64,000 bases of DNA, taken from IMG/VR virus record IMGVR_UViG_2703718819_000007; one strand, 5' to 3'. This document shows, in pieces, positions 26,497-47,397 of this stretch. Both the position numbers and the translations under genes were made by a program. Every line of letters begins with the position of its first letter. Within the stretch, counting starts at the first letter, position 1. The stretch comes from a virus. Taxonomy: Duplodnaviria > Heunggongvirae > Uroviricota > Caudoviricetes. The notes under the pieces were generated by a model, which ran no database searches, had not been told where the DNA came from, and worked only from the letters and a program-made list of their open reading frames with translations.

Positions 26497-27523
26497 TTAT
26501 ATTTTTTCGATCTCGACCAGATTAGTGTGCTGCGGGTTTCCCTTCGCCAGTGGTGAAGGGCGCAGAGTGGTTAGCGTATTCACACAGCCGCCATGGTCGA
26601 TTTTATCGCCAGACATATTGGCCTCGTGCCAGGCTCCCTGGCCCATAGCGCTAACTCCAGGGAGAATACGTGGTGTTACTTTGGCTGGTAGCCGAACTTC
26701 GCCACGATGGTTAAACACCCGCACCATATCGCCGTTGGCAATCCCACGTTTCTGCGCATCTATAGGGTTGATCCACACCTCCTGACGGCAGGCAGCCTTC
26801 AGGAGATCAATATTGCCGTAGGTCGAGTGAGTACGGGATTTGTAATGGAAACCAAACAGTTGCAGTGGGAAGGTTCTACGTTCAGGGGAGTCCCAGCCTT
26901 CAAAGGTAGAGGCATAAACTGGCAGTGGGCTTATCACTTCATCTTTTTCCAGTTCCCAGGTACGGGCAATTTCCGCCAGCTTGCTGGAATAAATTTCAAT
27001 CTTACCGGAAGGTGTTTTAAGTGGATTTGCCTCGGGGTCGTCACGAAATGCTTTGTAGGCGACAAAATGACCATTGGGATCTTTACGCTTATAGATACCC
27101 ATTTTTTTCAGTTCGTCGTAAGACGGTAACGCCGGATCTTTGGCAAGCATTTTGGCGTACAGATGTTGTAACCATTGTTCCTGCGTGCGACCTTCAGTGA
27201 ACTTTTGATAGACGTCAGGTCCAAGACGTTTCGCGACTTCACTCAGGATCCAGTAAATCGGTTTGCGTTCGAATTTTTCGCTGGTGACAGGCTGGAGGAA
27301 AATGAGATATCCCATGTTACCGGCGTAGTCGTTAGGAATAATATCTTCCTGCTCAACGGTCATCAGGTCTGGCAGCAGAATGTCGGCATATTTTGCCGAT
27401 GAGGTCATAAAGTTTTCGATGACCACAATCATTTCGCATTTCGATTCGTCCTGCAGAATTTCATGCGTTTTGTTGATGTCAGAATGCTGATTAACGAGGG
27501 TATTTCCCGCGTAGTTCCAGATG
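26497..27523 (-). pseudogene. ynfE: ynfE 3' (C-terminal) fragment, separated from its 5' part by the 6.7 kb insertion
   Basis: Translation ...ESIWNYAGNTLVNQHSDINKTHEILQDESKCEM... to ...VEIEKI paralogous to the YnfF C-terminus; upstream part of the ORF reads into element DNA. Confidence 0.8.
27513..27523. repeat. Left copy of 11-bp direct repeat agttccagatg (target duplication or att core)
   Basis: Identical 11-mer at 34224-34234; joining the flanks restores an in-frame ynfE (KFIWNYAGN). Confidence 0.75.
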
Positions 27524-27588
27524 GACTCCACTGTCAGACGGATGGACGGACTTGAAGTAGTTGACTCAACGCTACTTAAGGTCCTGAT

Positions 27589-29211
27589 ATGACTGACATT
27601 AACCATGACAATACTGTATATCCATCCAGTTCTTTCTCTGGGTCTCCCTATCTGTATCAGCAAGTCTACACCTCAAGTCCTGACACAAGGCTGACACAAA
27701 TCAACCTACTCGGCGTGGCTTGCTCGCTACTTGCTAAGCCTCAGTTAGTCCGTAGAGCCAATGGTCGATATACTATCCGCTTCAGACTCAAGGGACAGAC
27801 CATCCCGTTTCTTTCAGTATCGACCCGAAGCACAGACAGGAGAGTAGCCACAATGCGTCAGAGAGAGCTTGCAGCCACAGCTAAGTCCTTCATGTTGGAT
27901 AGGCCTGATGTCTCGCTACAGGAGCTTACAGAGCACCTCCGGTCTATGGCTGAGCAGTTCCTGACAGACGCTAGTGACGATTACTGGAATGGACTTGAGG
28001 TCGCTACTTTGGTGGACGAGAAGTCCAACCTGAAGGAGCTAGCCGCTACGCAAGCCTTAAGTCTGGACCAGCAGAAGGGCATAAGGTTAGCGCTTGAAGT
28101 CCTGACCGCAGCACAGCAGAGGGTAGACACTGGTGATACCTCTGGTCTGATTAAGCTGATTGATGATAATAACCATACTGATTACTCAACTATAGGCGAC
28201 TCTACGTCAATTCTGAAGAATGAGCAGGGGGATAGACCAGCAGTTTTCACACAGGAGCCCCAACCTGAGGTCACTATCGCTGACCAACCAGCTATCTGTA
28301 GTTTTTCTGAGCTAGTGTCCTCGCTGCTGGCTGAGAAGGTCCAGACCCTGAAGTCATCCAGCTACAAGGACCTGTCGTCCTCACTGAATACCGTCTCTCG
28401 GTTCTTACCTGAAGACATGGACCTGATGTCCCGCTCTGAGTGGCTGGCTGTCAGGGACGCTATGCTGGCTTCTGAGGTGAGACCGTCGACGATTAACAAG
28501 CTGCTGACTAAGGCGAAGATGTGTCTTGACTACGGTCTGATGAATGGGCAACTTGAGGGCCGCAACCCTATTGAACGGATGAAGCTGACCAAGGATATCG
28601 ACTCCAAGCGCAGAGCGTTCACAGACGAGGAGCTGGAGAGACTTCTGGTCCGTGTTGAGGCTGAGTATCAGTTCACACGACACACGGCTCACACGACCTC
28701 TGAGGCCCGTAGATGGGCGTCTCTGGTGTCTGTAGTTACTGGCGCTCGGTCTGCTGAGGTCTGCCACCTGACTAAACGTGACATTGTAACCTTAGACAAT
28801 GGACTGGTCTGTATCGACATCAACGAAGATGGGGACGGTAAGTCTGTGAAGAACAAGCATTCAGTCCGACTTGTGCCGTTGACCGATGGGGCCTGTGGTC
28901 TTGACCTGAAGTCCTTCCTCGAATGGGTAGACATGCAGCCTGACGAGGGTCCTCTCTTCGGGATGACTCCAAGCGCATACTCTAGCTGGTTTAACTCTAG
29001 GGTCCTGACTGAGGCCCTAGGAGACTCTCAGGATGTCTCTCTCCACAGTCTGAGGCATTGGCTGGCGACCCGCATGAAAGAGCGTGGAGTCAATCTGGTG
29101 GATGCTCAGGGCATCTTAGGCCATAGCAGTCAGTCCATTACGTATGACCTGTACGGGAAAGGACATGCAGTCCAGAGACTGGCTGAGGTGCTGAAGACAG
29201 CTTTACTTTAA
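27589..29211 (+). CDS. Tyrosine recombinase/phage integrase (start uncertain: ATG 27589, GTG 27715 or ATG 27853)
   Basis: C-terminal HSLRHWLAT...GHSSQSITYDLYG catalytic motifs (H-x-x-R, Y); N-terminal RYTIRFRLKGQ arm-binding-like motif. Confidence 0.85.
   Translation: MTDINHDNTVYPSSSFSGSPYLYQQVYTSSPDTRLTQINLLGVACSLLAKPQLVRRANGRYTIRFRLKGQTIPFLSVSTRSTDRRVATMRQRELAATAKSFMLDRPDVSLQELTEHLRSMAEQFLTDASDDYWNGLEVATLVDEKSNLKELAATQALSLDQQKGIRLALEVLTAAQQRVDTGDTSGLIKLIDDNNHTDYSTIGDSTSILKNEQGDRPAVFTQEPQPEVTIADQPAICSFSELVSSLLAEKVQTLKSSSYKDLSSSLNTVSRFLPEDMDLMSRSEWLAVRDAMLASEVRPSTINKLLTKAKMCLDYGLMNGQLEGRNPIERMKLTKDIDSKRRAFTDEELERLLVRVEAEYQFTRHTAHTTSEARRWASLVSVVTGARSAEVCHLTKRDIVTLDNGLVCIDINEDGDGKSVKNKHSVRLVPLTDGACGLDLKSFLEWVDMQPDEGPLFGMTPSAYSSWFNSRVLTEALGDSQDVSLHSLRHWLATRMKERGVNLVDAQGILGHSSQSITYDLYGKGHAVQRLAEVLKTALL
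27681..27700. repeat. Left arm-type repeats tgacacaagg-c-tgacacaaa
   Basis: Same 20-mer recurs at the right end (34136-34155) in direct orientation. Confidence 0.6.
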
Positions 29212-29218
29212 GTAGGAA

Positions 29219-29270
29219 GACCCAAGGTGGAGACCATATACGGCTTGATGGTTGAGACCTTGGGTCACTG
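29219..29270 (+). terminator. Long-stem hairpin after integrase stop; possible terminator or processing site
   Basis: gacccaagg ... ccttgggtc 9-bp inverted repeat. Confidence 0.35.
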
Positions 29271-29399
29271 AAGTCTGACTGAAGTTAGGGAGGGTGATAA
29301 TAATCATAATCCCTCCTGACTATAGGCCCACTGGTTCGCCTTCGGCTGTCCGACTCTAAGTCTGTCTGTGGTCTTATTTAAACTGCGTCCTAAACTCCA

Positions 29400-29650
29400 G
29401 TCCCTCCAAATTCCTATGGTCTCCTCTTGACATTCCTGTTTAACTGTGAGTCGCCTCTGGTCTCTCTTTATATATACTTCCTTAATTCCTGAGGCGTCTT
29501 TAGTCCTTGACATTCTGTCCAACCTGTGAGTCACATCCGGTCCTCCCTCTTTATATTTACTTCCTTAATTCCTAGGGTCGCCTTAATCCTTGACATCCAG
29601 TCCAGCCTGTGAGTCACATCCTGTCGCGCTACTGTATGCATCACCAGTGG
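29400..29650. repeat. Three tandem ~80-83 bp repeat units each containing TTGACAT and palindrome TGTGAGTCACA; candidate operator or iteron array
   Basis: TTGACA at 29427, 29507, 29590; cttccttaattcct and ctgtgagtcac recur with the same period. Confidence 0.65.
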
Positions 29651-29652
29651 TG

Positions 29653-29675
29653 GACTTGATTATCACTATAGGGGA
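29653..29675 (+). promoter_or_regulatory. T7-type single-subunit phage-RNAP promoter motif (tatcactatagggga)
   Basis: 12/12 match to T7 core TCACTATAGGGA (-8 to +4); 36 nt upstream of an RBS-preceded ORF. Confidence 0.6.
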
Positions 29676-29705
29676 ACCAACTAATTCAACGACAGGAGAT
29701 ACTCT

Positions 29706-30074
29706 ATGGCACGACCAATCGCAACTCACGACAACACGTTCACCAAAGCCTACTTGCAGCAGCACTGCGGGGACCTGCTGTCATTCGATGGTCAGGGTGA
29801 CTTGAGTGGCTGGCTGGATGATGTCCTTACTGGTGCTGGTCGCCTGAGCGAATCAATGGCAAGCAATACCAAGCCTGTCAGCCCATACTTGATTCTGACC
29901 CAACTACTAACGCACGACACATTAACTGTAAGCGCTGTGCAGGAGTCCCTGAGCCGTAAGCGTGTTGCCTTGGGTGAACCTATGGTTTCAACTCGCTACG
30001 CTCGCTACGTCTATTCTACGGTGGTCAGCGCCAGTAAATCCGTCAAGTACCACGCCAGTAAAGCTGGTTCATGA
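29706..30074 (+). CDS. Hypothetical protein (122 aa), first gene downstream of a T7-type promoter
   Basis: AGGAGA RBS 6 nt upstream of ATG. Confidence 0.6.
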   Translation: MARPIATHDNTFTKAYLQQHCGDLLSFDGQGDLSGWLDDVLTGAGRLSESMASNTKPVSPYLILTQLLTHDTLTVSAVQESLSRKRVALGEPMVSTRYARYVYSTVVSASKSVKYHASKAGS

Positions 30075-30095
30075 TAAAGGACCCTAAACTATCAC
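30073..30095 (+). promoter_or_regulatory. Second T7-type promoter motif (tatcactatagggaaga)
   Basis: Shares exact 13-mer tatcactataggg with 29660-29672. Confidence 0.6.
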
Positions 30096-30504
30096 TATAG
30101 GGAAGACCAACCTTGCCTCTGAGTCTGATGCGTCAGAACATGCGAGCATCTGGTCAACCGACATTAAGTATCTCTCCTAAGTAATCAAGGCCCGTGACCG
30201 CCTCTGTCAGACCTCCTGTATGACCTCCAGCTCGTTAGCGTTCTTTAGTCGTCTCGGTTAGTAGCTCGTCTACTCACTACATTGGCTTAAGTCTATCACC
30301 GCTCACCATCTGGAAGTCCTTACAGCTCGTCCTGACATGCGGTCGCACCTTTATACGTACATGGAGAACATGGTCACTCCAGACCGTCAACATTTAACCA
30401 TTCACTTTCGTTAAGCACTTTCTGATGGGTCCGTTTAGGATGCGTCTGAATGGTGCGGACTCCATGTGGAGACAGAAAGTGCTTTACCAAAGGAGCATCT
30501 TTGT

Positions 30505-31020
30505 ATGAATACCGAATTACCAGTAACTAACCGCCAGTTCTTAATCATCCTGCTGACCAATGCAGAGTCCAGTGTCGATTGCTGTCGCTATAACTTAGAC
30601 CTGCTGAAGTTATCCCGATGGTATGCCCAGGCGGAAGACTGGGACTATGAGAAAATCCGGGAGATGTACGCGGAGCCTATCCAGTCATACCTCCAGACAC
30701 ACACCGAGGAAGAGCTGAAGCGTGGCCTGCAGGACATCTTCTATTTCAACAATCCTTACACCTGTGAGGGTGACTCAGAAGAGATGGATTGGATAGCGTC
30801 ACGCTCTGATGCCGACTTGAAGCACATCTCTAACGCGATGATGCAGGTGGAGAGCAAATGGTCTCGCCGACTTCAGGTCCTAACTGAGGATTACGAAAAC
30901 GGCACCTTTGATAAGCTGGTCCCACCTGATACCGAACGTCTTCAGGCGAAAGCTGACCAAGAACAGCGCTTCAAGTCCTTTGCCGAAGCTCTGGCGGGAG
31001 GTGCCTCTTATGACTTCTGA
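30505..31020 (+). CDS. Hypothetical acidic protein (~171 aa)
   Basis: AAGGAG RBS 10 nt upstream of ATG 30505. Confidence 0.55.
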   Translation: MNTELPVTNRQFLIILLTNAESSVDCCRYNLDLLKLSRWYAQAEDWDYEKIREMYAEPIQSYLQTHTEEELKRGLQDIFYFNNPYTCEGDSEEMDWIASRSDADLKHISNAMMQVESKWSRRLQVLTEDYENGTFDKLVPPDTERLQAKADQEQRFKSFAEALAGGASYDF

Positions 31021-31504
31021 CAATAAGCAGGAATACACCATTCATATCTTCGGTCAGGACATCACCAGTCAGGACGGATTGTTTCGACTCGATGAAATTC
31101 GCCGGGTCGGCATTCAGATTGGCAAAGTAGAAGACACCGAGTCGACACAGTACAAGCGTTTTGCTCAGACCAAAGTTGGAAAGCTACTGAGGAATAGGCA
31201 GAAAATCCGCCTTATCCGAATGGGTGAACTCGGGTCTACCGTCCTTGCTGACCCCGCCGCTACTGTAGAGTTTGGTCGCTGGCTGGACTTTGAGTACGGA
31301 CTGGCAGTCTCTGAAGCCTTCGTGTCTATGACCTCCAGCGCCACCGTGCAGTCTGCTGTAGCGTCTGCTGAGGACATCAAGCCGGAGACCAAGGAATTCA
31401 TCCAGCGTCATGGCACAGGCCTCTACATCGCCGGACGTGAAGTCTCACAGGCTGAGTATTCAGACTATCAAGCTGTGACCGCTGGTCGCTGTGAGTGGAG
31501 GTAA
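31009..31504 (+). CDS. Hypothetical protein (~165 aa)
   Basis: ATG overlapping the upstream stop (translational coupling). Confidence 0.5.
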
Positions 31505-31510
31505 GTAATC

Positions 31511-31684
31511 ATGGCTATGATTGACCCACGCACACCTGAGGGCCGCATGACTCTCCGTTACCGTGGCTACCGGACTGAAGTCCTCCTCAGAGAGCTTGGT
31601 CTAGACCCGGAAGATGAGACCCGCCAGCACCAATCCCGAGACGAGCTGATAGCGCAACTGGTCGCTATGAAACTGTCTGCCTAA
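31511..31684 (+). CDS. Small hypothetical protein (57 aa)
   Basis: GGAGG RBS upstream of ATG; not in ORF track because <60 aa. Confidence 0.45.
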   Translation: MAMIDPRTPEGRMTLRYRGYRTEVLLRELGLDPEDETRQHQSRDELIAQLVAMKLSA

Positions 31685-31780
31685 TTTTAAAACCTTTTGA
31701 GATGACCGATGCGGGGAGACCCGTAGGCGCTACTGCGTCTGCGATACCGATAGTCTCAACTCTCAAGAGGAGAATTACCT

Positions 31781-32272
31781 ATGATGTTCAACAACAACAA
31801 CTGGAAGCTGTCAGTCACCGACATCAACCTTTATGAAAACACTGTGAGTCTGGACGGTCAGCCCTATCCGCTGTCGCTCGCTATCAAGACCCTCATTCCG
31901 GGCTACCTGTCAGGCCTGCCGTCTACCAGCCGCGAGGCAATGGAGTTACTGGAAGCTCTGGCTGAAGCTGGCGTAGCTATTGGCAACTTCTTCAGTAATG
32001 ACCTGATGACCGCCTATGGTCGCCGCCAGCTTAACAAACGAGCTGAGGCTGAGCGTATCGCTAAAGAGCTGGCATCTCAGAAAGAGCGTATGCGTGAAGA
32101 GAACATGACCGATGCAGAGTGGCAGAAAGAGCTACAGCGCCGCGAACAAGTCAAAGCTGAACGCCGGACCTATGGTGAGAACCTCCGCAGTGCAACCCAT
32201 TCCGCTGGTCGCTCCCGTGCCGCTATTGTCGCTGACCTTGAGTCAGGCGGTAACTGGCTGGACAGCTTATAA
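31781..32272 (+). CDS. Hypothetical protein with charged coiled-coil C-terminal half (163 aa); scaffold-like by position
   Basis: AGAGGAGA RBS; K/E/R-rich helical region; immediately precedes the 328-aa ORF. Confidence 0.5.
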   Translation: MMFNNNNWKLSVTDINLYENTVSLDGQPYPLSLAIKTLIPGYLSGLPSTSREAMELLEALAEAGVAIGNFFSNDLMTAYGRRQLNKRAEAERIAKELASQKERMREENMTDAEWQKELQRREQVKAERRTYGENLRSATHSAGRSRAAIVADLESGGNWLDSL

Positions 32273-32356
32273 GACACACAGTCCCTGACCCGATGTTAGG
32301 GACTCCTCAGTTTTGAGGACTCACAGTATTTAAACTAATTTAGGAGATTGATTATT

Positions 32357-33343
32357 ATGACGATTAAAGACGCTTTCCAGTTTGGCATTGAGCCAGTACG
32401 CATCACCGATACCGACAACATTCAGGTCAATGAAGGTCTGCCGACTAACGCTGACCCGCAGGTCTACGCCCTCCAGTTAGCTAAGACGGTTAAGGCTATG
32501 CTGAACGGTGTACTTAAGGACGCTCAAGAGAACATCCCGTTCCCTGTAGAAGTCCTGCCGACCCGTAACAGCTTACCGACCCCAATCATTGCCCACACTC
32601 TGGCTGACCGCTCTGTGGTCGTTCCTGTCCGTGGTGGCAAGCGACCTGAAGTCGTGACCATTCCGTCTGGACAAGAAATCGTGGTCGAACCAATCGAGCA
32701 GGCTATTCTCATCTCTGAGCAGACCACTCTCTGGGACGCCAAGTCATCCACCGGATTCACTCAGGGCACACTTCAGCAGGACGCTATGAACATCTGTGAG
32801 AATGTGGTCCGTACCATCAACGCTCACATGGTCGACGTTCTGGAATCCTCTAAGCTGCTGAAGACCGTAGAGCTTCCTGTCCTGACTGGTAGCCTGACCG
32901 CTAAGGCAGACGCTATCATGGACGCTCTGTATGAGAACACAGAGCCTTCTTTCGGTTCTGAGGTGTCTAACTACGGTATTATCGCTCATGAGAGCCAACT
33001 GAAAGCACTGTCCCGTCTGGCTGCTAAGCAAGGCTTCTCCGGTGAAGACGCTATCGTCGATATGCTGGGAACAGACATCGCCTACTACAACGGTGAAGAC
33101 AAGGGTGTATTCATGCTGGCTAAACGCTTCACGGCTCTGAGCTTCGGTTGCTTCCGTCACGATGGCGAGAATATTACGGTCGTCCTTTCACGTGATGGCG
33201 ACTCTCAGTCCCACGACTTGGAAATCCTCGGTAAAGTGTACGTTGTCGCTGAAGCTGCTACGACCATCAAGATGGGCACTGGCTCAGCTACTGCCGTCCT
33301 GCCTGTAGTCAAACGCCTGAAGTTCACCAAGACCGAAGCGTAA
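32357..33343 (+). CDS. Hypothetical 328-aa protein, largest non-integrase gene of the element; candidate structural (capsid-like) protein by context only
   Basis: AGGAGA RBS 8 nt upstream; leader tttaaactaatttaggagattgattattATG resembles the T7 gene-10 leader. Confidence 0.5.
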   Translation: MTIKDAFQFGIEPVRITDTDNIQVNEGLPTNADPQVYALQLAKTVKAMLNGVLKDAQENIPFPVEVLPTRNSLPTPIIAHTLADRSVVVPVRGGKRPEVVTIPSGQEIVVEPIEQAILISEQTTLWDAKSSTGFTQGTLQQDAMNICENVVRTINAHMVDVLESSKLLKTVELPVLTGSLTAKADAIMDALYENTEPSFGSEVSNYGIIAHESQLKALSRLAAKQGFSGEDAIVDMLGTDIAYYNGEDKGVFMLAKRFTALSFGCFRHDGENITVVLSRDGDSQSHDLEILGKVYVVAEAATTIKMGTGSATAVLPVVKRLKFTKTEA

Positions 33344-33348
33344 GACCA

Positions 33349-33588
33349 ATGGGTAAGAGCATTAGTAAAGGCTTCAGGTCCATCGCCAAGGGCCTGACAG
33401 GTGGTGGTGGGACTCAAGGTGGGGCTTCGGTCCCGCCTCCTGTAGCTCCTCCTGTAGCTCCTCCAGATGACGCTCAGCAAGCTGTAGTCGATACCCAAGG
33501 TCAGGAGACCGAGGGAGGTAAGACCATGAGCAGAGGTAAGTCTGGACTGAATATCAGCAGGACTTCAGGTGGTGGCCTGTCACTGTGA
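33349..33588 (+). CDS. Small Gly/Pro-rich protein (79 aa)
   Basis: ORF 5 nt after previous stop. Confidence 0.4.
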   Translation: MGKSISKGFRSIAKGLTGGGGTQGGASVPPPVAPPVAPPDDAQQAVVDTQGQETEGGKTMSRGKSGLNISRTSGGGLSL

Positions 33589-33826
33589 TTAAGACATCTA
33601 TACAGCCTGTGGAGGGTGGACGATATCAAGCAACAATCTGGATGACACGCAGAGTCTATAAGCGGCTATGCTGGTCACTGGCTGAAGCTGAACAGTGGGT
33701 GAGACGTAAAGTGCCTACCGTTCAATCGTTCCAATCATCATGATAACTATGGTCTGGACCAATGGTCTGGACCTTTGTTTTGTACTAGTTATCTAGTGCA
33801 GTAGTACAATAGACGAAGGAGGCTTT

Positions 33827-33982
33827 ATGTCCATGACTTCCGCAGACCTAAGGTCCCTCCTGACTCTGGTCTATAAACTCGTGCTCCTCTCTGTGGGTCT
33901 CTATATGGTCCTCTCCGGTCGACTCGGTGTGAATGTATTCGACACTCTGTCTAAGGCTGTGGGTGGGCTTCTGGGGGCTTAG
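33827..33982 (+). CDS. Small hydrophobic (single transmembrane) protein, 51 aa; holin-like by size only
   Basis: Strong AAGGAGG RBS; LVYKLVLLSVGLYMVLSG hydrophobic core. Confidence 0.4.
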   Translation: MSMTSADLRSLLTLVYKLVLLSVGLYMVLSGRLGVNVFDTLSKAVGGLLGA

Positions 33983-34135
33983 GTTTGGACTCACAGTGGG
34001 ACCGATGGTTTCTGACAGAAAAATGTGAATGACCATCTAATACATTAAGCCAGCAGACTTCTCCCCCATAGCCCCGCCTCAAGTCCAGACCGAGGCCACC
34101 GGGGTCCTGACCAGCCGTCTAGACATCCCGTCTAA

Positions 34136-34168
34136 TGACACAAGGCTGACACAAAGCCTGACACAAAG
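34136..34168. repeat. Right arm-type repeats: three copies of tgacacaa(g/a)g
   Basis: Direct repeats at 34136, 34147, 34159 matching the left-end 20-mer. Confidence 0.6.
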
Positions 34169-34223
34169 TCCTTGACTCAATGCAGGACCTCAGACCTACT
34201 AAGGGTCCGCTTCAAGTCCTTGA

Positions 34224-34234
34224 AGTTCCAGATG
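34224..34234. repeat. Right copy of 11-bp direct repeat agttccagatg
   Basis: Identical to 27513-27523. Confidence 0.75.
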
Positions 34235-35634
34235 AACTTAATGGGCACATCCAGTTTATCTTTGCCGCGGACGCCGTCGCGGATTGCCGTCATTTGCGGA
34301 CCATGATCGATAGCATCTGTCCAGCTGAAGCAGGAGATTGACATTTTGACCGGATTATCCAGCACCGGCAGGCGTTCTATGGTAATGGTATAGGTCGATT
34401 CACGCGCGCCACTATTTCCGCCGCTGATGCCGACATTGCCCGTCAAAATAGGTAACATAGCAATAGCGCGTGCAGTCAGTTCGCCGTTTGCCTGGCGTTG
34501 CGGCCCCCAGCCCTGGCAGATATAAGCGGGTTTTGCTGTGCCAATTTCACGCGCCAGTTTGATGATACGGTCTACCGGGATACCGGTAATTTGCGAAGCC
34601 CACTGCGGCGTTTTCGCTGTGTTATCATCACCTTCACCAAGAATATAGGCTTTATAGTGACTATTTTTGGGTGCATCTGCGGGTAAGGTTTTTTCGTCAT
34701 AGCCGACGCAGTATTTATCGAGAAAAGGTTGATCAACGAGATTTTCGTTAATCAATACCCAGGCAATACCCGCAACCAGCGCGGCATCGGTGCCCGGGCG
34801 AATAGGGAGCCATTCATCTTCACGACCAGCAGCCGTATCGGTATATCGCGGATCGATAGCAATCATTTTGGCGTTCGATTTCTCGCGCGCTTTTTCAAGA
34901 AGATAAGTGATGCCACCGCCGCTCATGCGGGTTTCTGCCGGGTTGTTACCAAACATCACGACCAGCTTGCTGTTTTCAATATCCGTGGTGCTGTTGCCAT
35001 CATTACTGCCGTAGGTGTAGGGCATGGCACAGGAAATTTGCGCGGTGCTGTAGGAGCCATACTGATTGAGTGAACCGCCGTAGCAGTTCATCAGGCGTTT
35101 GACCGCCGAGGCTGATGGCGAAGAGCGGGTCATATTGCCGCCAACGATCCCCGAAGAGTACTGAATATATACAGCCTCATTGCCATATTGTTCGACGGTT
35201 TTCTTCAGGCTACTGGCGATAGTATCCAGGGCTTCATCCCAGCTAATCCGTTCGAATTTGCCTTCGCCGCGTTTGCCCACGCGTTTCATTGGGTAATTCA
35301 AGCGATCGGGATGATTAATACGCCGACGGATGGATCGACCACGCAAACAGGCGCGTACTTGATGATTGCCATACTCGTCGCTGCCGGTGTTGTCAGTTTC
35401 CACCCAGGTGACTTCATTATCTTTAACATGTAGACGAAGTGCACAGCGGCTACCACAGTTGACGGAACAGGCACCCCAGATCACTTTTTCGCTGGCCTGT
35501 TGTACCGCTGCCGCTGCACTGCGCAGGGTGAACGGTAAAGAAAAACCGCCTGCAGCCAGCGCCAGAGAACCTATCGCGGTTGATTTAACGAGTGTTCTGC
35601 GGCTGATGCCCACCATTCGGTCATTTTTGGACAT
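34224..35634 (-). pseudogene. ynfE: ynfE 5' (N-terminal) fragment with Tat signal, interrupted by the element
   Basis: MSKNDRMVGISRRTLVKSTAIGSLALAAGG...; reading frame runs into element sequence and stops at 34177. Confidence 0.85.
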
Positions 35635-40807: not shown

Positions 40808-40994
40808 TACCAATAACGGCGAGTAAGTAGTACGCATCTTACCTCTTTTTTAGAGATAACCATTATGACAATAGAAAAACATGAAAGAAGCACTAAGGAT
40901 TTGGTGAAAGCAGCAGTATCGGGATGGCTGGGCACTGCGCTTGAATTTATGGATTTCAAGAGTCATGCGTGTTAACTATTTGATAAATATTAAA

Positions 40995-42290
40995 TTAATT
41001 TTTCATTGATTCGTTATGGGGCATGGTTGGGGCAAACTCGCTTAACTGTGTATTTAACAAAGCTACCTGTGCATTATTGTTTTCAGACATCCATTTTCCG
41101 TATACCTGAAATACCATTTGCGCATCTGCATGGCCCATCTGGTTTGCTATAAATGCCGGGTTAGCACCAGCTGTCAGCGACCAGCAGGCATAAGTATGTC
41201 TCGACTGATATGATTTTCGATGGCGGAGTCCGGCACGTTTTATCGCTGCGTCCCACATCTGCCTTATTGAGTCAACGGTAAAATGGTCACCATAATTTTT
41301 TACTCTCGCTGACACTTCAGGTTGAAAAACAAAGGTGCATTTTTGTTTTTCTGTTCTGCCATACTCTCTGAGGTGAACATCAATGATATGCTCTTTGCTC
41401 AGTCTCGTTAATGTCATCTGACTCCGGAGAGCGTCGATTGCTGGCTTAATAAGATGAATGGCCCGATTGGTTCCCGCCTGTGTTTTTGGTACCGTGAAAC
41501 GGTCTTTTGCTAAATTTCTCCTGATCATCATTGTTCCATTTTTCAGATCTATGTCCTCCCATCCAAGTGCACACAGCTCACCAGGGCGAACGCCAGTATA
41601 AACAGAAACACACCATAAATTTTTTGCTTGCTGATTTCTGCACGCATCGATAAGACGGATAAATTCCTCCCGCGAAAGAGGATCCGGAATGGTTCTTGAT
41701 TCCTTTAATGGCGAGATCCCCTTAAACGGATTATCTGCCAGGTAACCGTTATCAACACCAAACTGGAACACGGCGTTAAGATTTGTCATGTAATTATTTA
41801 CAGTTACAGCCGATCTCCCTGGTTGTGTAACAATATAGTTACTTTTGGGGATCTGGTATCCAGTCAGTAGCTCTTTACGAACCTCCAGTAATTTTTCTTT
41901 ATTAATCGATGAGGCAAGATTTTTTTCACCGATTATGCTCAGGATATTTTTGATGACGGCACGGTATGTGTTGAGTGATGTTTTGGCGACTTCAGTTTCT
42001 TTCAGTGCCAGAAATTTTTCAGCCAGTTCTTTTATGGTTAAATCTTGTCGGGCCTCACCAAATTTTTCCAGATTGCGTGAGGAGGGAAACTGTTTTGCAT
42101 AGTCGAAAACACCAGTTTTTATTGCGTAACAAACAGAGGAGCGTAGTTCACCTGCAACGCGCCTGTTTTTTGCTGTGTCAGGAACCCCCAGATTTTCCCT
42201 GACTCTTACGCCTTTATAAACAAACCAGATACGTAATTTCCCTCCATGGTTTTCCACGCCTGTCGGATATTTCATTTCAACTTCTCTCAT
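40995..42290 (-). CDS. Phage integrase (tyrosine recombinase) of the Qin-type prophage
   Basis: C-terminal catalytic region (RHTYACWS...GHADAQMVFQVYGKW); start may be M6. Confidence 0.85.
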   Translation of the reverse strand: MREVEMKYPTGVENHGGKLRIWFVYKGVRVRENLGVPDTAKNRRVAGELRSSVCYAIKTGVFDYAKQFPSSRNLEKFGEARQDLTIKELAEKFLALKETEVAKTSLNTYRAVIKNILSIIGEKNLASSINKEKLLEVRKELLTGYQIPKSNYIVTQPGRSAVTVNNYMTNLNAVFQFGVDNGYLADNPFKGISPLKESRTIPDPLSREEFIRLIDACRNQQAKNLWCVSVYTGVRPGELCALGWEDIDLKNGTMMIRRNLAKDRFTVPKTQAGTNRAIHLIKPAIDALRSQMTLTRLSKEHIIDVHLREYGRTEKQKCTFVFQPEVSARVKNYGDHFTVDSIRQMWDAAIKRAGLRHRKSYQSRHTYACWSLTAGANPAFIANQMGHADAQMVFQVYGKWMSENNNAQVALLNTQLSEFAPTMPHNESMKN

Positions 42291-42309
42291 TAGTTAGTGT
42301 GGCTTTTAG

Positions 42310-42561
42310 TCAAGTAAGATGACATCTTGGTCTCGCTGATGCTTGGCGCTCAATCCAGCGATCAATTTCTTCCAGGTTGTAAAAGCATGGACTGTTATCC
42401 CATGGCATACCGTCATGAGCGACATGCTTATATTCCCTTCCTTCCATAAACGATTTTTCCCGAGCCTTTTTTAACGTACCTTTTTTTATTCCTTTCAGCG
42501 CAATTAACTGCTCTTCGGATACCCATTTGCCGGGAGAGACAATCATGATTACTTCGCTCAT
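42310..42561 (-). CDS. Excisionase-like protein (DUF1233 type)
   Basis: Position upstream of int; KWVSEEQLIALKGIKKGTLKKARE...CFYNLEEIDRWIERQ. Confidence 0.55.
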   Translation of the reverse strand: MSEVIMIVSPGKWVSEEQLIALKGIKKGTLKKAREKSFMEGREYKHVAHDGMPWDNSPCFYNLEEIDRWIERQASARPRCHLT

Positions 42562-42633
42562 CGATTTCTTTATCTCTTACATCAGACGAGCGCCGGTTGC
42601 AGAATACCAGTCACAACCGGCGACAGTTGAACA

Positions 42634-45105
42634 TTAAGAATCAGCCTGACTCGGGATCAGTTTTTGCCAGATAACTGAAACGTATTTTGCCTGGTAACGG
42701 GCGTCATCAAGTGCATTATGGCGCTCACCTTCGAATGGAATAGCCGTTCTGGCATCGAAGTCTATGGCTTTCCCCAGCTCAACGATTGTGCGTACATCGC
42801 GATCGTTGTAGTAACGCCACGGGCAGGGGATCCCCTGCCGTTCATATGAACGGCGCAAAATCGTGTTGTCGAAGTTGGCTCCATTTCCCCAAACCTGAAC
42901 AAAAAATTCACCGGAGTTTTCGTCGATAAATTCCCGCAATTGTAACAGTGCATCATCTAACGGGATTTCATCGGTCATAATGGCAGATTGCGCTTCGCGT
43001 GATTGCTTAAGCCACCATTTAATGGTGTCCCGATCAATGACTCCGCCAGCAGTTTCCAGATCGATAGTCTTACTAAATTCCGGTCCCATATCTCCGGTTT
43101 GCGGATCGAAAAATATTGCACCTATTGAGATGATCGGGGCATCAGGATTTTTTCCCATGGTTTCAAGGTCGATCATTAGATGGTCACACGTCCTGCTGGT
43201 GGATGTGATTTCGTGATGACCGTTCACCTTAATTGGGTGATCTGCCGTCTCGCCAGTTTCATTATCGCTATTGTGATGCTGATTGCCGCCAGTGTTCTCC
43301 TTGTGTGGATGTTCAGCGCCTTCCATTTCCTCCGGATCATCTTCCTGAACTTCAACCTGATACTCTTCATCGAATGTTTCTTGGTATGTTGCGTCGCCCA
43401 TCACCGCGCCACAATCAGGGCAGTTGCCGCCGCCGGTCTGACCGCAGGCGGTGCAGACCTTTTCCACTTCCTGTTGCGCCACTGGTTCAGGCTGTTTCGT
43501 TTCTGGCTCGTTTTGTAACGCATTTGGACTGTTTTGTTCCGCTTTTTGGTAGTTCCGTTCCGATTCATGCTGGTTCTGGTTCACAGAATCGCGGGTCTGG
43601 ATCCCCTTAACCCATTTCGGATCATTCGGGTCACTAATCCCTTCAACAAATTCACCACGTGATGCAGCAAGCAACTTATCGGCGTCAGGCTGGCTGATAT
43701 TGGCTGCCTGCATAATTTTGTTTACTTCGTCAGCGGTAACTTTTATCGGCTCTGGTTGTTCTGAATCTTCAGCGGTATCTACATTTTGCGGTAAGCCCGT
43801 GTATGTGCCATTTTTTCGGGCAAAATATTCTTCTTTTGTGATTTCAGTGGCGCCAGCAGCCAGTGCCTTATCCAGACCAGAAAGTTTGTTTGCGCGACCG
43901 TATTTTTCTCCGTCCTTATCTGCGAAGAGGAAATAGAACGGCCCCTCACGCTCTACAGATGGTTCAGCTTCCGGCGCGGTTTCATTTTTTGGGATATCAG
44001 ATACCTCAGTTTCCACTGCATCAGTTTGTGTTTCTGATGACTGGAGAACATCAACAGTGCCCAGGTCTGTTTCTTCATTCTCAAACACGCCCTTTGTCGT
44101 CAGGTATTCGCAGATATATTTGTTCAGTGCTACGGGATCTTTGTGAATGTCGATCGGACGCTCACGGACAAGGCCAAAAATAGTTTGGCGGTCGTAGCGA
44201 AGGGCATCAGGCTGTTTGCGCATTGATGCCGAGATACGCTTCCAGTCTTCGCGGTCGTTGTCGATAACTTCTTTTTTTGCCCAGCGATGGATGCTGCCGT
44301 CAATGTTTCCGGCATCCACATCACCAGGCCAGAGAGCGTAGGCCAGTTCGTCATCCAGTGTTTTCCATGTCTGCTTGTATTCGCGATGAATGGCAGCAAT
44401 GACCGGGCTGATTTTTCCTGTTGAATTTTCAGTGTACTGTTGATTGGCTCTGGCGCGGGCGAGATCAACAACAGACGTGTATTTTCCGGTTTCCTTGCGT
44501 TCACCTTCGCGACGTTTTTTCCAGATGCGCATCTCTGCCTGAATTTCGGGCCATTTAGCACCAGGAATACATTTATGCTTAACCCACCCAATGGCGTGCA
44601 ACTTAAGCTCCGGATACATGGCGTTAACTTCTGGCATTTTCATCAACGCTTCAACGATATGTCCGTCGAATGTTGCCATGTCTTCCTGCAACAATTCCTG
44701 TGCGCTAATAACCATATCAACGGTGATGTTTTCACATGTGTCGAACTTAACCATGACAGCGTTCTGTACTTCAGGGGCCAGCTTGTCAAAAGTGACGTTC
44801 ATCGGATCGGATTCAGTCTCAACCGGGACAAAAGAAGCAGACTCCTCATCCCAGCGGTTTTCCTGCATATATTCAGCATCCCATGAATCGAGGGCAGGGC
44901 GGGGTATGCCAGGTTTATCCTCGCAGACAATAAATTTATAAGCGCAGTCCTGAGCAGCCGGATAATGTTCCAGGAATTGCCAGTGAAATTTTGCTCGAGC
45001 ACGGCGTTCGTCGCCAGCTTCAATGGCTGTGGCTACAGCCACAGCGCCTTCTTCCCTTGTTGCCAGTTCGTCAGGAATAGCGGCGCAAATAAAGACTTTA
45101 CTCAT
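42634..45105 (-). CDS. Prophage exonuclease (823 aa) with C-terminal DEDDh 3'-5' exonuclease-like domain
   Basis: C-terminal DHLMIDLETMG...GNGANFD...HNALDDARYQ motifs. Confidence 0.65.
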   Translation of the reverse strand: MSKVFICAAIPDELATREEGAVAVATAIEAGDERRARAKFHWQFLEHYPAAQDCAYKFIVCEDKPGIPRPALDSWDAEYMQENRWDEESASFVPVETESDPMNVTFDKLAPEVQNAVMVKFDTCENITVDMVISAQELLQEDMATFDGHIVEALMKMPEVNAMYPELKLHAIGWVKHKCIPGAKWPEIQAEMRIWKKRREGERKETGKYTSVVDLARARANQQYTENSTGKISPVIAAIHREYKQTWKTLDDELAYALWPGDVDAGNIDGSIHRWAKKEVIDNDREDWKRISASMRKQPDALRYDRQTIFGLVRERPIDIHKDPVALNKYICEYLTTKGVFENEETDLGTVDVLQSSETQTDAVETEVSDIPKNETAPEAEPSVEREGPFYFLFADKDGEKYGRANKLSGLDKALAAGATEITKEEYFARKNGTYTGLPQNVDTAEDSEQPEPIKVTADEVNKIMQAANISQPDADKLLAASRGEFVEGISDPNDPKWVKGIQTRDSVNQNQHESERNYQKAEQNSPNALQNEPETKQPEPVAQQEVEKVCTACGQTGGGNCPDCGAVMGDATYQETFDEEYQVEVQEDDPEEMEGAEHPHKENTGGNQHHNSDNETGETADHPIKVNGHHEITSTSRTCDHLMIDLETMGKNPDAPIISIGAIFFDPQTGDMGPEFSKTIDLETAGGVIDRDTIKWWLKQSREAQSAIMTDEIPLDDALLQLREFIDENSGEFFVQVWGNGANFDNTILRRSYERQGIPCPWRYYNDRDVRTIVELGKAIDFDARTAIPFEGERHNALDDARYQAKYVSVIWQKLIPSQADS

Positions 45106-45198
45106 TTTGTTTTAACCTCATGACAGATTTAAGGATGAACAAATCCCTGCCATTGCTGGCATATAAGAATGAAACCGGATATTTATTACGGAACTGTT

Positions 45199-45390
45199 TT
45201 AAAGACCTGCCGGGATTTCGATATTATCCTGGTGAATAACTTTATCGACCGGGTAACAGTTACCGGGAATTTTCTGTTCGGTTGCTGCAGTCATACACTC
45301 CTGCATTGTCCTGTGAACACTGACTGCAATATCAACTGGCACTCCGGAAACAAGAAAAACTGTCAGAACAAGCGCAAATGCTGAATTCAT
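45199..45390 (-). CDS. Small hypothetical protein with N-terminal hydrophobic segment
   Basis: AAGGA RBS; MNSAFALVLTVFLVSG. Confidence 0.45.
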   Translation of the reverse strand: MNSAFALVLTVFLVSGVPVDIAVSVHRTMQECMTAATEQKIPGNCYPVDKVIHQDNIEIPAGL

Positions 45391-45575
45391 TGTGCACATC
45401 CTTTTGGCATCAGACGTAAACGAGCCAGCATTGAAACAATGCATATTTTATTTAATAGCTCCCGTTCTTGTTTTCTCTTGTTAATGGCATCTTCAGTAAA
45501 TACAGGGTTACTGATAGTGACACCAATTTCAAAACAACCTTCAGACGTATTAACGTTTGGTAATAACGTTTTCAT
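45387..45575 (-). CDS. dicB: Cell-division inhibitor DicB (62 aa)
   Basis: MKTLLPNVNTSEGCFEIGVTISNPVFTEDAINKRKQERELLNKICIVSMLARLRLMPKGCAQ. Confidence 0.8.
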   Translation of the reverse strand: MKTLLPNVNTSEGCFEIGVTISNPVFTEDAINKRKQERELLNKICIVSMLARLRLMPKGCAQ

Positions 45576-45749
45576 TATCGCGTCCTCAACAATGAATTTT
45601 GTGATGCAGTGCCTGGTGCCTCCAGGTGACGTTAACCAGTTAACAATTAACGTCGGATACAGAGAATCCACCCATAACACTGTTTTTGGTTTTAACTGTT
45701 CCGCGTGCGCTTAGCCGCATTCACCGCATCACAAAATTCACTTTAAAAA

Positions 45750-45802
45750 CGGCGGCAGAGCAGTCACGGAGTAAAACTGATACCGCCAAACGTCACCAGA
45801 AA
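45750..45802 (-). ncRNA. dicF: DicF small regulatory RNA (targets ftsZ mRNA) with 3' terminator
   Basis: Reverse complement reads tttctggtgacgtttggcggtatcagttttactccgtgactgctctgccgcc followed by T-run. Confidence 0.8.
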
Positions 45803-46448
45803 ATTGATAACAGAGGGCGTTGCAGCGGGGTTGTCACTTAAGCGTATGGTCAACCTGACAACTCGGTGTCCTCAACGGGGAAGGAATAACCCCGCCATAC
45901 TTACCGCCGCGCCATTTTGCGGGTTGCCACAACCGGAAGCGCACGGTCGAATTAAATTTAACGACACCGTACAGCGAGACGAACTTCGCCGTGCGCTTTC
46001 GTGTTGTGTGCCTGCTTTTAACCACGTCAGGCGAGGTGGTATCCTTAAAATCACCACAGTTTTAAGGATTCATTAAGCAATGTCGCAACCACCAATAAAT
46101 CCGCTTAAGAACATGAAAATTGATTACTGGTATAAAGCGCTTACAGTTGTTGGCGCTGCGTTGTTTGTCTTTAATGGAACGTCTTTTTTTGACAGATATC
46201 CCGTTGTTCCATTGGGTTTTTTGTCCTCCGGCATCTTTTTTATTGGTTTGGGGGAGTGGATTAATCACCCTCTCAAAGTGAGATTTATTGGTCCTGGAGT
46301 TTGGACTCGTGGATATAATAGTTCTTCGTGCGCACTCGGTATCATCTTCGACATACTTGGTTGTTTCCTGATTGTTACAGGAGTCGTCAAGTTCTTCTGA
46401 TGTAAAACCGCAAATGGGGCACGTAACGGGAATTTTGAAAAGCGTTTC

Positions 46449-46637
46449 TCAGGGTTCCAGAACAAAATTTTCTGCGGTCTGATTTTGCTTCTCATATTTG
46501 TGCTCCGCGTCATTGTGAGAGCACATTCTTATTCTGAGTGCCTGTTTAAACTCACTGAAGCTGAGAGCTTCTTCGCCTTCGGCAAGGCCTTCGAAGTATT
46601 CTTCGTAAGCCTTTTCCATGATTGTGTCGAAATCCAT
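46449..46637 (-). CDS. YdfB-like small protein of the dicB operon
   Basis: MDFDTIMEKAYEEYFEGLAEGEE...; operon position. Confidence 0.5.
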   Translation of the reverse strand: MDFDTIMEKAYEEYFEGLAEGEEALSFSEFKQALRIRMCSHNDAEHKYEKQNQTAENFVLEP

Positions 46638-46638
46638 A

Positions 46639-46794
46639 TCACTCACCTGAGTTTCTTTCCAGCCAGCGACGGGCACCATTTTCGGTTTTAAACGTTTTGC
46701 TTTTGGTATACGTCATCGCGGTGAACGTACCGTCCTGGTTGGGGAATACGCCACATACCAGAGATTCGTTGTTGCCAAGATCGATAGTATCCAT
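46639..46794 (-). CDS. YdfA-like small protein (51 aa)
   Basis: MDTIDLGNNESLVCGVFPNQDGTFTAMTYTKSKTFKTENGARRWLERNSGE. Confidence 0.6.
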   Translation of the reverse strand: MDTIDLGNNESLVCGVFPNQDGTFTAMTYTKSKTFKTENGARRWLERNSGE

Positions 46795-46986
46795 GCTGAC
46801 CTCATTTCCCCTTAACGCCGGGGTAGCGGAACTGTTTGCTGAGAACACCGTGCGGTGTCTTGATGGAGGTAATTTAGTTTTCTCATTGTTTTTCGTCAAG
46901 GTTTTTTGATGAGAAAACTCAAGTATTGGCGCAAGATAAAGCCAATACATTGAAATGTAAGGCTTTAAAATTTTGTGAAGGGATGA

Positions 46987-47397
46987 TTATTGATGCTTGT
47001 TGCGTTTGCGAGCCTCTAATAGCTCGGTGAACAGGCGATTAAAATTCTCAACGCGGGCGCGGAGTTCGCTGAGTTGTGCTTGTTGCTCTGATTTAGGAAG
47101 TGCGCGATACAAACGCAGCATCTCTAACTCATCTTCCGATAAGTCTAAGGCACTATCGAGTGAAACAGGGGGAGCTGGTGTTTTGTCCTCGTCGCCAAAC
47201 AGTATCCAGGTTGGTGAACATTGCAATACCTCGGCGAGGCGATGCAAATTTTGCCCGCGCGGGGCTGTATGGTCACTTTCCCATAATGAAATTGATGAGC
47301 CAGATACGCCAGCAGCTTTGCTTAAACCGTTTTGACTTAAGCCTACCTGCTTACGTCTTTCTCTAATGCGTTGACCTAAAGTTTTCTCGTTCATATT
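46987..47397 (-). CDS. dicA: DicA-like HTH (XRE family) repressor
   Basis: GLSQNGLSKAAGVSGSSISLWESDHTAPRGQNLHRLAEVLQCSPTWILFGDEDK. Confidence 0.8.
   Translation of the reverse strand, partial: NMNEKTLGQRIRERRKQVGLSQNGLSKAAGVSGSSISLWESDHTAPRGQNLHRLAEVLQCSPTWILFGDEDKTPAPPVSLDSALDLSEDELEMLRLYRALPKSEQQAQLSELRARVENFNRLFTELLEARKRNKHQ

Follow-up and report, generated by a model that had tools for sequence, protein, structure and literature searches.

A tandem array of promoter-like repeats beside a candidate LexA box and a phage-type promoter in an integrase-bearing island of Escherichia coli

The locus and the island that carries it

Between an integrase gene and a block of small genes we found a short array of tandem repeats that stops just before a T7-type promoter, which raises the question of what such repeats do at this place. 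An initial annotation had offered two answers, an operator array bound by a dimeric regulator or the iterons of a replication origin. The window (the whole stretch of 64 kb that was analysed) is E. coli chromosome, and the array lies within an integrase-bearing island of ~6.6 kb that is inserted in ynfE. The island has the following features.

27561-27569 (left) and 34172-34180 (right), no strand: att core TTGACTCAA, 9 bp, a direct repeat; a split ynfE is annotated in relatives
27589-29211, + strand: tyrosine integrase (Pfam PF00589, phrog_1)
29212-29705: intergenic region of 494 bp that holds the array
29706-30074, + strand: p122, the first gene after the array, 122 aa, all-helical, phrog_23123
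29706-34000 (approximately): nine small or medium ORFs without assigned function
33349-33588: 79-aa protein, 40% identical to a gp7.3-like virion assembly protein of a Kayfunavirus, the sole phage match among the nine ORFs

The core genes of the island encode proteins of 57, 163 and 328 aa with no known domains. A capsid function was considered for the 328-aa protein and rejected, as its structural model was poor (pLDDT 46) and it gave no profile match to the Kayfunavirus capsid. No match to PADLOC defence-system models was found. The island is present in about 158 of 5426 complete E. coli genomes, and the intergenic region was matched in 119 genomes, with almost full coverage in 76 of these. 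Relatives of the island occur in Shigella, Citrobacter, Leclercia, Buttiauxella, Enterobacter and Rouxiella, and at least seven enterobacterial genera are represented. A literature search found no description of such an element or family, the nearest concept being the PICMI satellites, and the island family appears to be undescribed. We know of no integrated parasites of T7-family phages; the island may be a satellite of, or a defence element against, virulent phages of this family.

Several further observations concern the island and its surroundings. Direct repeats of CTGACACAA lie just inside the island ends, two on the left and three on the right (27679-27700, 34134-34166), and are probably arm-type integrase binding sites. 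A non-coding leader of ~400 nt (30103-30505) extends from the second phage promoter to the next gene and contains an inverted repeat of 20 nt with 90% complementarity (30405-24 / 30473-92); sibling islands carry a different but well-conserved leader at the matching position, and the leader may serve as an RNA element or as an origin of replication of the phage type. Elsewhere in the window a lambdoid prophage starts at about 40940-47000 with integrase, excisionase and exonuclease, and is 99.9% identical to Escherichia phage HannyBb.

Extent and geometry of the repeat array

Tandem Repeats Finder reported a tandem repeat at 29426-29625 with a period of 83, 2.5 copies, 82% matches and a score of 245, and a gap-free repeat search placed the unit starts at 29426, 29506 and 29589, spaced by 80 and 83 bp. 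The ~80-bp tandem repeats of the initial annotation are real, with a period of 80-83 bp, and they amount to 2.5 units instead of three, the third being truncated. Each unit opens with a segment that we call block A, and the two complete units continue with a segment that we call block B.

29426-29625, + strand: tandem array of 2.5 units, ~200 bp (unit 1 29426-29505, unit 2 29506-29588, truncated unit 3 29589-29625)
29427-29452, + strand: block A of unit 1, TTGACA-N14-TGAGTC (TTGACATTCCTGTTTAACTGTGAGTC), an exact pattern match whose hexamers and spacing are kept in relatives
29463-29490, + strand: block B of unit 1, TCTCTTTATATATACTTCCTTAATTCCT, an AT-rich, -10-like TATACT with a CT-rich box; a homologous single block B lies upstream of the p122 homologue in relatives L009 and L180
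29507-29532, + strand: block A of unit 2, identified by pattern match and conservation, with the palindrome TGTGAGTCACA at 29525-29535
29546-29573, + strand: block B of unit 2, CCTCTTTATATTTACTTCCTTAATTCCT, whose GTCACA-16-TATATT scores highest among the sigma-70-like matches of the array
29590-29615, + strand: block A of unit 3, terminal, with the palindrome at 29608-29618 and no block B after it

The pattern TTGACA-N14-TGAGTC is exact in all three units, and the repeat stands above chance because this bipartite motif finds no other match in the window even when up to two mismatches are allowed. The sequence CTTGACAT occurs at exactly the three unit starts and at just one other site in 64 kb. 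The gap from CTTGACAT to CTGTGAGTC is 10-11 nt in the units of the window, somewhat shorter than the 12 bp or so formerly given between cttgacat and ctgtgagtcac, and the geometry is better described by the fixed distance between the two hexamers. The palindrome that had been assigned to every unit is perfect (TGTGAGTCACA) in units 2 and 3 only, and unit 1 carries the imperfect form TGTGAGTCGCC. Likewise, tttatat and cttccttaattcct are present in units 1 and 2 and missing from the truncated unit 3, which keeps only CTTGACAT...CTGTGAGTCAC.

The 9-mer CTGTGAGTC was also considered as an island-wide signal. All six copies in the 64-kb window lie inside the island (29444, 29524 and 29607 in the array; 31842, 32318 and 33988 outside it), where 0.41 copies are expected in the window, so that the recurrence is statistically real. 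This candidate was nevertheless rejected, since one of the copies outside the array is coding and the two non-coding ones are kept in only some relatives.

Conservation of blocks A and B among related islands

The comparison covered 18 distinct unit sequences, which came from the window, from five E. coli/Shigella loci, from eight metagenome contigs and from the lineages L011, L012, L178 and L179, whose first gene is 78-82% identical to that of the window. The TTGACA of block A was invariant in all 18 (three diverged lineages), and TGAGTC was invariant save for a single TGAGTT in L179. The spacing between the two hexamers was fixed at 14 bp, while none of the 14 spacer positions was invariant among six diverged units. 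Near-invariant hexamers at a fixed distance, a free spacer and an invariant hexamer equal to the -35 consensus together make the pattern of a bipartite polymerase site. Block B follows the form TCTCT(T)TATAT(A/T)TA(C/T)TTCCTTAATTCCT, or TCTCT-TATAT(A/T)TAC-TTCCTTAATTCCT in short form; its -10-like box (TATACT or TATATT) leads into a CT-rich stretch that is conserved, and the distance from TGAGTC to its AT box varies between 16 and 19 bp.

The layout of the array is always (A-B)n-A, with n = 1 or 2, so that every array closes with a lone block A, and all units are oriented toward the downstream genes in every lineage. There are 1.5 copies in L004, L013, L088, L129, L011, L012, L178 and L179 and 2.5 in the window; both alleles are found within E. 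coli, and hybrid units occur in L004, L013, L088 and L129. In L005-type strains an insertion of 18 bp separates block A from the LexA box described below, and because this insertion is tolerated block A behaves as a unit complete in itself. Where the first gene is only distantly homologous (56-58% identity; L009/L010 and L180), it is preceded by one block-B-like box, and block A is missing.

A dyad-symmetric site is not what is conserved among copies and relatives. The palindrome TGTGAGTCACA is present in two of the three units of the window and is not kept in the diverged relatives, where the corresponding site reads CTCTGAGTCACTT, ACCTGAGTCAGCT, CTGTGAGTCATCT or CTGTGAGTTATCT and only the 7-bp core TGAGTCA (or TGAGTC) is kept, locked 14 bp from the non-symmetric TTGACA. 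No repressor-like gene was detected in the island either, and the dimeric regulator on an 11-bp palindrome that had been proposed for the array finds no support in these comparisons.

Conservation in homologous elements, which had been suggested as a check on the repeats, holds within one sub-lineage and fails in others. The array is absent from L006 and L007, which are sibling islands with the same integrase and att site, and from L014-L021, which have a different integrase and the same core genes. In L076, a short food-metagenome contig of 2.8 kb, a junction inside the phage promoter links the array (1912-2280) to a downstream module that belongs to another type of island, and no p122 gene follows the promoter. 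From this junction, phage promoters may act as recombination points at which modules are shuffled. Outside the island family, blastn of the array against 50,697 phage records gave no match except for the hairpin upstream of it, no similarity to Kayfunavirus ends and no occurrence of the pattern in Kayfunavirus PQ593108 was found, homology to plasmids was not found, and when viral and metagenome collections were scanned for the pattern, the matches other than chance ones were all copies of the E. coli type.

Candidate LexA boxes beside the array and the integrase

Both of the best LexA scores in the 64-kb window fall within the island. The scores come from a weight matrix (PWM) built on twenty E. 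coli boxes and are approximate, the training boxes themselves scoring 12.6-27.1.

29630-29649, + strand: candidate LexA (SOS) box TACTGTATGCATCACCAGTG, CTGT-N8-CCAG, PWM 16.5, second best in the window
27612-27631: candidate LexA box TACTGTATATCCATCCAGTT at the 5' end of the integrase ORF, PWM 23.6, best in the window

The box at 29630-49 lies between the last block A and the phage promoter, and this 20-mer, of the CTGT-N8-ACAG type, scores within the range of known boxes. An orthologous box follows the last block A in L012, L178 and L179, where it is near-consensus (e.g. TACTGTATGTCCATACAGTT) and scores 23.4-25.0; a LexA box stands directly after the last block A in every array with an intact last unit, the E. 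coli lineage having the score of 16.5. It is missing in L011, whose last unit has been interrupted by recombination with a different promoter module, and in all islands without an array. The placement of the array between integrase and gene block had been taken as a sign of a control region, and this interpretation is supported by its link to the LexA box and by its position directly before the first gene and the phage promoter.

All ynfE-type islands have the integrase box; its sequence varies among them, but CTG...CAG stays intact, and it overlaps a promoter-like CTGACA-18-TATATC. This arrangement suggests that expression of the integrase is controlled by the SOS response and that its true start codon would lie further downstream.

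Phage-type promoters and resemblances to phage ends

As noted in the initial annotation, the array is followed by the first T7-type promoter. The promoter core ATCACTATAGGG occurs at 29662 and 30091, where 0.12 occurrences are expected by chance, and the region contains the following phage-related features.

29654-29676, + strand: first phage-type promoter ACTTGATTATCACTATAGGGGAA, +1 G at 29671; TATCACTATAGGG is identical (13/13) to promoters of Kayfunavirus PQ593108
30079-30105, + strand: second phage-type promoter CCTAAACTATCACTATAGGGAAGACC; CTAAACTATCACTATAGGGA agrees at 20/20 positions with two Kayfunavirus PQ593108 promoters
29219-29266, + strand: hairpin directly 3' of the integrase stop codon, an inverted repeat with 19-nt arms, 79% complementary, a possible terminator with no T-run
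29288-29324, + strand: GGGAGGG...CCCTCC hairpin GGGAGGGTGATAATAATCATAATCCCTCC, sharing 32 nt at 97% identity with a sequence that lies ~450 bp from the ends of Kayfunavirus genomes

The promoters on the island backbone differ between hosts and are of Kayfunavirus, T3 or T7 type. Those of L009 are of T3 type (AATTAACCCTCACTAAAGGGAGA; 2150-2175 and 2755-2775), that of L180 is of T7 type (TTATCGACTCACTATAGGGAGA; 585-607), and L014-L021 have two different promoters in tandem, CCCTCACTATAGGGGA and TTAACTATCACTATAGGGAGA (e.g. L021 5478-5525). Swapping of promoters may set which helper phages an island answers to.

The hairpin at 29288-29324 is inverted relative to the phage genes, and its loop resembles a Fur box (GATAATGATAATCATTATC). 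Near the other end of the island, at 33984-34100, GGACTCACAGTGGGACCGATGG, CTCCCCCATAGCCCC and CCTCAAGTCC resemble the Kayfunavirus terminal-repeat pieces TCTCACAGT..., CCTCAAGTCTCCCCATAGGCCC and GGACCGATGGT in matches of only 11-13 nt; as a weak lead, this stretch may be the remnant of a packaging site.

Possible SOS-gated host promoters

We tentatively interpret the array as tandemly duplicated, promoter-like modules for the host RNA polymerase that are gated by the SOS response and drive the first island gene (p122) alongside the phage promoter, a reading that we rate somewhat short of an even chance. The sequences show how the array is built and conserved, that it goes together with the LexA box and what the phage promoters are; from this we infer that RNA polymerase would initiate at the array, from one or another of its hexamers. 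Every unit, in the window as in the relatives, has a perfect TTGACA as its -35 element, and the TG of TGAGTC falls at the position of an extended -10 TG for a 17-bp spacer.

The weak point of this reading is the -10 element. No canonical hexamer was found 16-18 bp after TTGACA; the critical A at -11 is missing from GTCACA (17 bp) as well as from TCACAT (18 bp). Scores from a sigma-70 PWM, which are approximate and come from a matrix built on published hexamer frequencies, reached 8.47 for GTCACA-16-TATATT and 8.18 for TTGACA-18-TCACAT within the array, both below the 99.99th percentile of the window (9.46). A simple consensus scan of 29000-30500 gave two promoter-like sites against 1.8 expected from shuffles, hence no excess. 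The alternative pairing of TGAGTC (-35) with TATAT (-10) is not rigid either (16-19 bp), and the last unit has no block B. It is because of the missing canonical -10 at the right distance, the moderate scores and the unfixed distance between TGAGTC and TATAT that our confidence is held at this level.

Some relatives carry sites that score higher. In L009 the TATACT of block B is the -10 of a strong sigma-70-like site, TTGGCT-16-TATACT (PWM 11.2), and in L006 and L007, which have no array, a single sigma-70-like site, TTTCCA-16-TACAAT (PWM 10.1), stands where the array would be; on the same approximate scale both exceed the 99.99th percentile of the window. From these sites it seems that such islands commonly place a host promoter just before the phage promoter, and the array would be a duplicated version of this arrangement.

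LexA usually acts at sigma-70 promoters. Under the proposed mechanism, the host sigma-70 polymerase would bind the array modules and transcribe rightward into p122, and LexA just downstream of the last module would keep this host-driven transcription off until the SOS response. When a matching phage infects, the adjacent phage-type promoter would take over (from 29671). Duplication of the modules (1.5 or 2.5 copies) might tune the strength, as with the tandem early promoters of T7. The first island gene would thereby have two inputs, SOS-controlled host transcription and transcription by the phage polymerase.

Other readings were tried and dropped. Sites for sigma-32, sigma-E/ECF, sigma-54 and sigma-28 misfit in spacing or key bases when compared by eye with their consensus sequences. 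The half-sites TGTGA and TCACA of a CRP site are present, but they are 1 bp apart instead of 6 and are not conserved. A structured RNA gave no Rfam match in 27400-34300 at E<=1, and the plus-strand fold (z = -2.5) has a stem that is not conserved, the minus strand having z = 0.3. An anti-Shine-Dalgarno function, in which the CU-rich block B would mask the ribosome site of p122 in long transcripts, was rejected on a fold of 29462-29740 with z = 0.2.

Alternative explanations

A serious rival, though on balance an unlikely one, is that a sequence-specific DNA-binding protein occupies the repeats, be it p122, the integrase of the island or a factor from the host or a helper phage, and that the array works as an operator or sink through which the p122 module is repressed or activated. 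Such a protein would read the asymmetric block A, with TTGACA and TGAGTCA two helical turns apart, or block B, and not the 11-bp palindrome, whose extended form is not conserved. The rigid bipartite motif and its association with p122 fit this explanation. Among the candidate proteins, p122 has no recognisable DNA-binding signature, searches having given no Pfam, PHROG-function, PDB-sequence or significant fold match; the L076 array has no p122 gene after its promoter; and the same integrase occurs in islands without an array. Moreover, that the invariant half-site equals the exact -35 consensus would have to be a coincidence.

A more far-reaching proposal, which we regard as improbable, is that the array acts in cis as the switch of a family, so far undescribed, of elements that live as satellites or parasites on virulent T7-family phages. 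Here block A, promoter-shaped but lacking a normal -10, would capture the host polymerase or else a protein of the helper or the island, and block A together with LexA would decide between silence, a DNA-damage response and handover to the incoming phage polymerase. If this were true, the regulatory logic would be one that is not described for any satellite.

It is also rather improbable that only one copy is functional, as promoter or operator, and that the extra copies are a recent neutral tandem duplication by unequal crossing-over. The coexistence of 1.5- and 2.5-copy alleles in E. coli, the hybrid units and the single block B of the distant relatives are what such a history would leave behind. 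Against it, A-B-A is kept in three lineages that are ~20% diverged at the protein level, and since paralogous units differ in their spacers and not in their motifs, purifying selection is likely to act on each copy.

Still more doubtful is a packaging or genome-end repeat, either an analogue of the short-repeat regions found in T7-family genomes between the terminal repeat and the first promoters or a set of terminase small-subunit sites for packaging by a helper. The array lies 100 bp downstream of the hairpin that is 97% identical to near-end Kayfunavirus sequence, the helper-type phage has tandem repeats of ~30 bp between its terminal repeat and its early promoter, and GACTCACAG on the minus strand of the units, with two more copies in non-coding island DNA, resembles the left terminus TCTCACAG of the phage. 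The array itself has no detectable similarity to any of the 50,697 phage records or to Kayfunavirus ends, however, and both L011 and unit 1 of L012 have lost the CAG of GACTCACAG. The array is absent from sibling islands that share the core genes and would have to be packaged by the same route, its copy number is polymorphic, and the linkage to LexA has no place in this model.

Least probable of all are the iterons of an origin that the initial annotation had proposed, with AT-rich block B as unwinding element: direct repeats with AT-rich segments about eight helical turns apart, beside genes of unassigned function, would suit such a role, but searches with the ten island proteins revealed no initiator, primase or helicase, the unit measures 80-83 bp against 17-22 bp for iterons, no DnaA box is conserved, many strains have 1.5 copies and the siblings L006, L007 and L014-L021 none, and replication of T7-family phages begins at phage promoters, of which the island already has two.

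Implications and comparison with known systems

If the units are SOS-gated host promoters, as we tentatively propose, the first gene would be under two independent triggers, DNA damage through LexA and the phage-polymerase promoter, and this would make the island a compact chromosomal element that responds to its host cell as well as to a virulent phage. In this mosaic island family the array is the marker of one module and a possible first handle on how the islands are controlled. The island merits attention in its own right, as it belongs to a family whose promoters match those of different T7-family phages and which also has two candidate LexA boxes and a homologue of a phage virion protein.

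For the island, though not for the array, the nearest relatives in concept are the PICMI, minimal satellites of virulent vibriophages that have the core genes int, alpA and prim, are located at fis and are packaged as headful concatemers (bioRxiv 10.1101/2023.07.18.549517). Both are integrase-bearing elements of ~6 kb with very few genes and a link to a virulent helper, which is putative for the island. The island differs in having no alpA or prim and in carrying phage-polymerase promoters and the gp7.3-like gene.

The array belongs with the familiar tandem promoter or operator repeats, in variant form. It shares with the operators of temperate phages (lambda OR1-3), plasmid iterons and centromere repeats (F sopC) the arrangement of tandem similar sites in an intergenic control region, some with a short dyad. 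In contrast to these, its units are 80 bp long, conservation does not lie in the 7-bp dyad, a gene for a cognate repressor, Rep or ParB was not detected, and it is absent from sibling elements.

LexA-controlled operons are a known feature of satellites and prophages, for instance SaPI operon I and tum of phage 186. As in these systems, a candidate SOS box lies at the start of an operon in what would be a helper-responsive mobile element. In the island the SOS box is appended to a repeat array, and the helper signal would be a phage RNA-polymerase promoter instead of an antirepressor.

The closest functional analogy is found in the left end of T7, which in the sequence of Dunn and Studier reportedly carries the tandem host-polymerase early promoters A1, A2 and A3. 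The T7 promoters have good -10 elements, as does Kayfunavirus (TTGACA-18-TAATAT in PQ593108, approximate PWM score 12.9), whereas the island units do not, and the array differs further in carrying a LexA box and in lying away from any demonstrated genome end; in sequence the two are not homologous. Nevertheless, both the T7 A1-A3 region and the array consist of three co-directional promoter-like units with a TTGACA -35, ~80-125 bp apart, which look like duplicates, adjoin a phage-polymerase promoter and precede the first genes.
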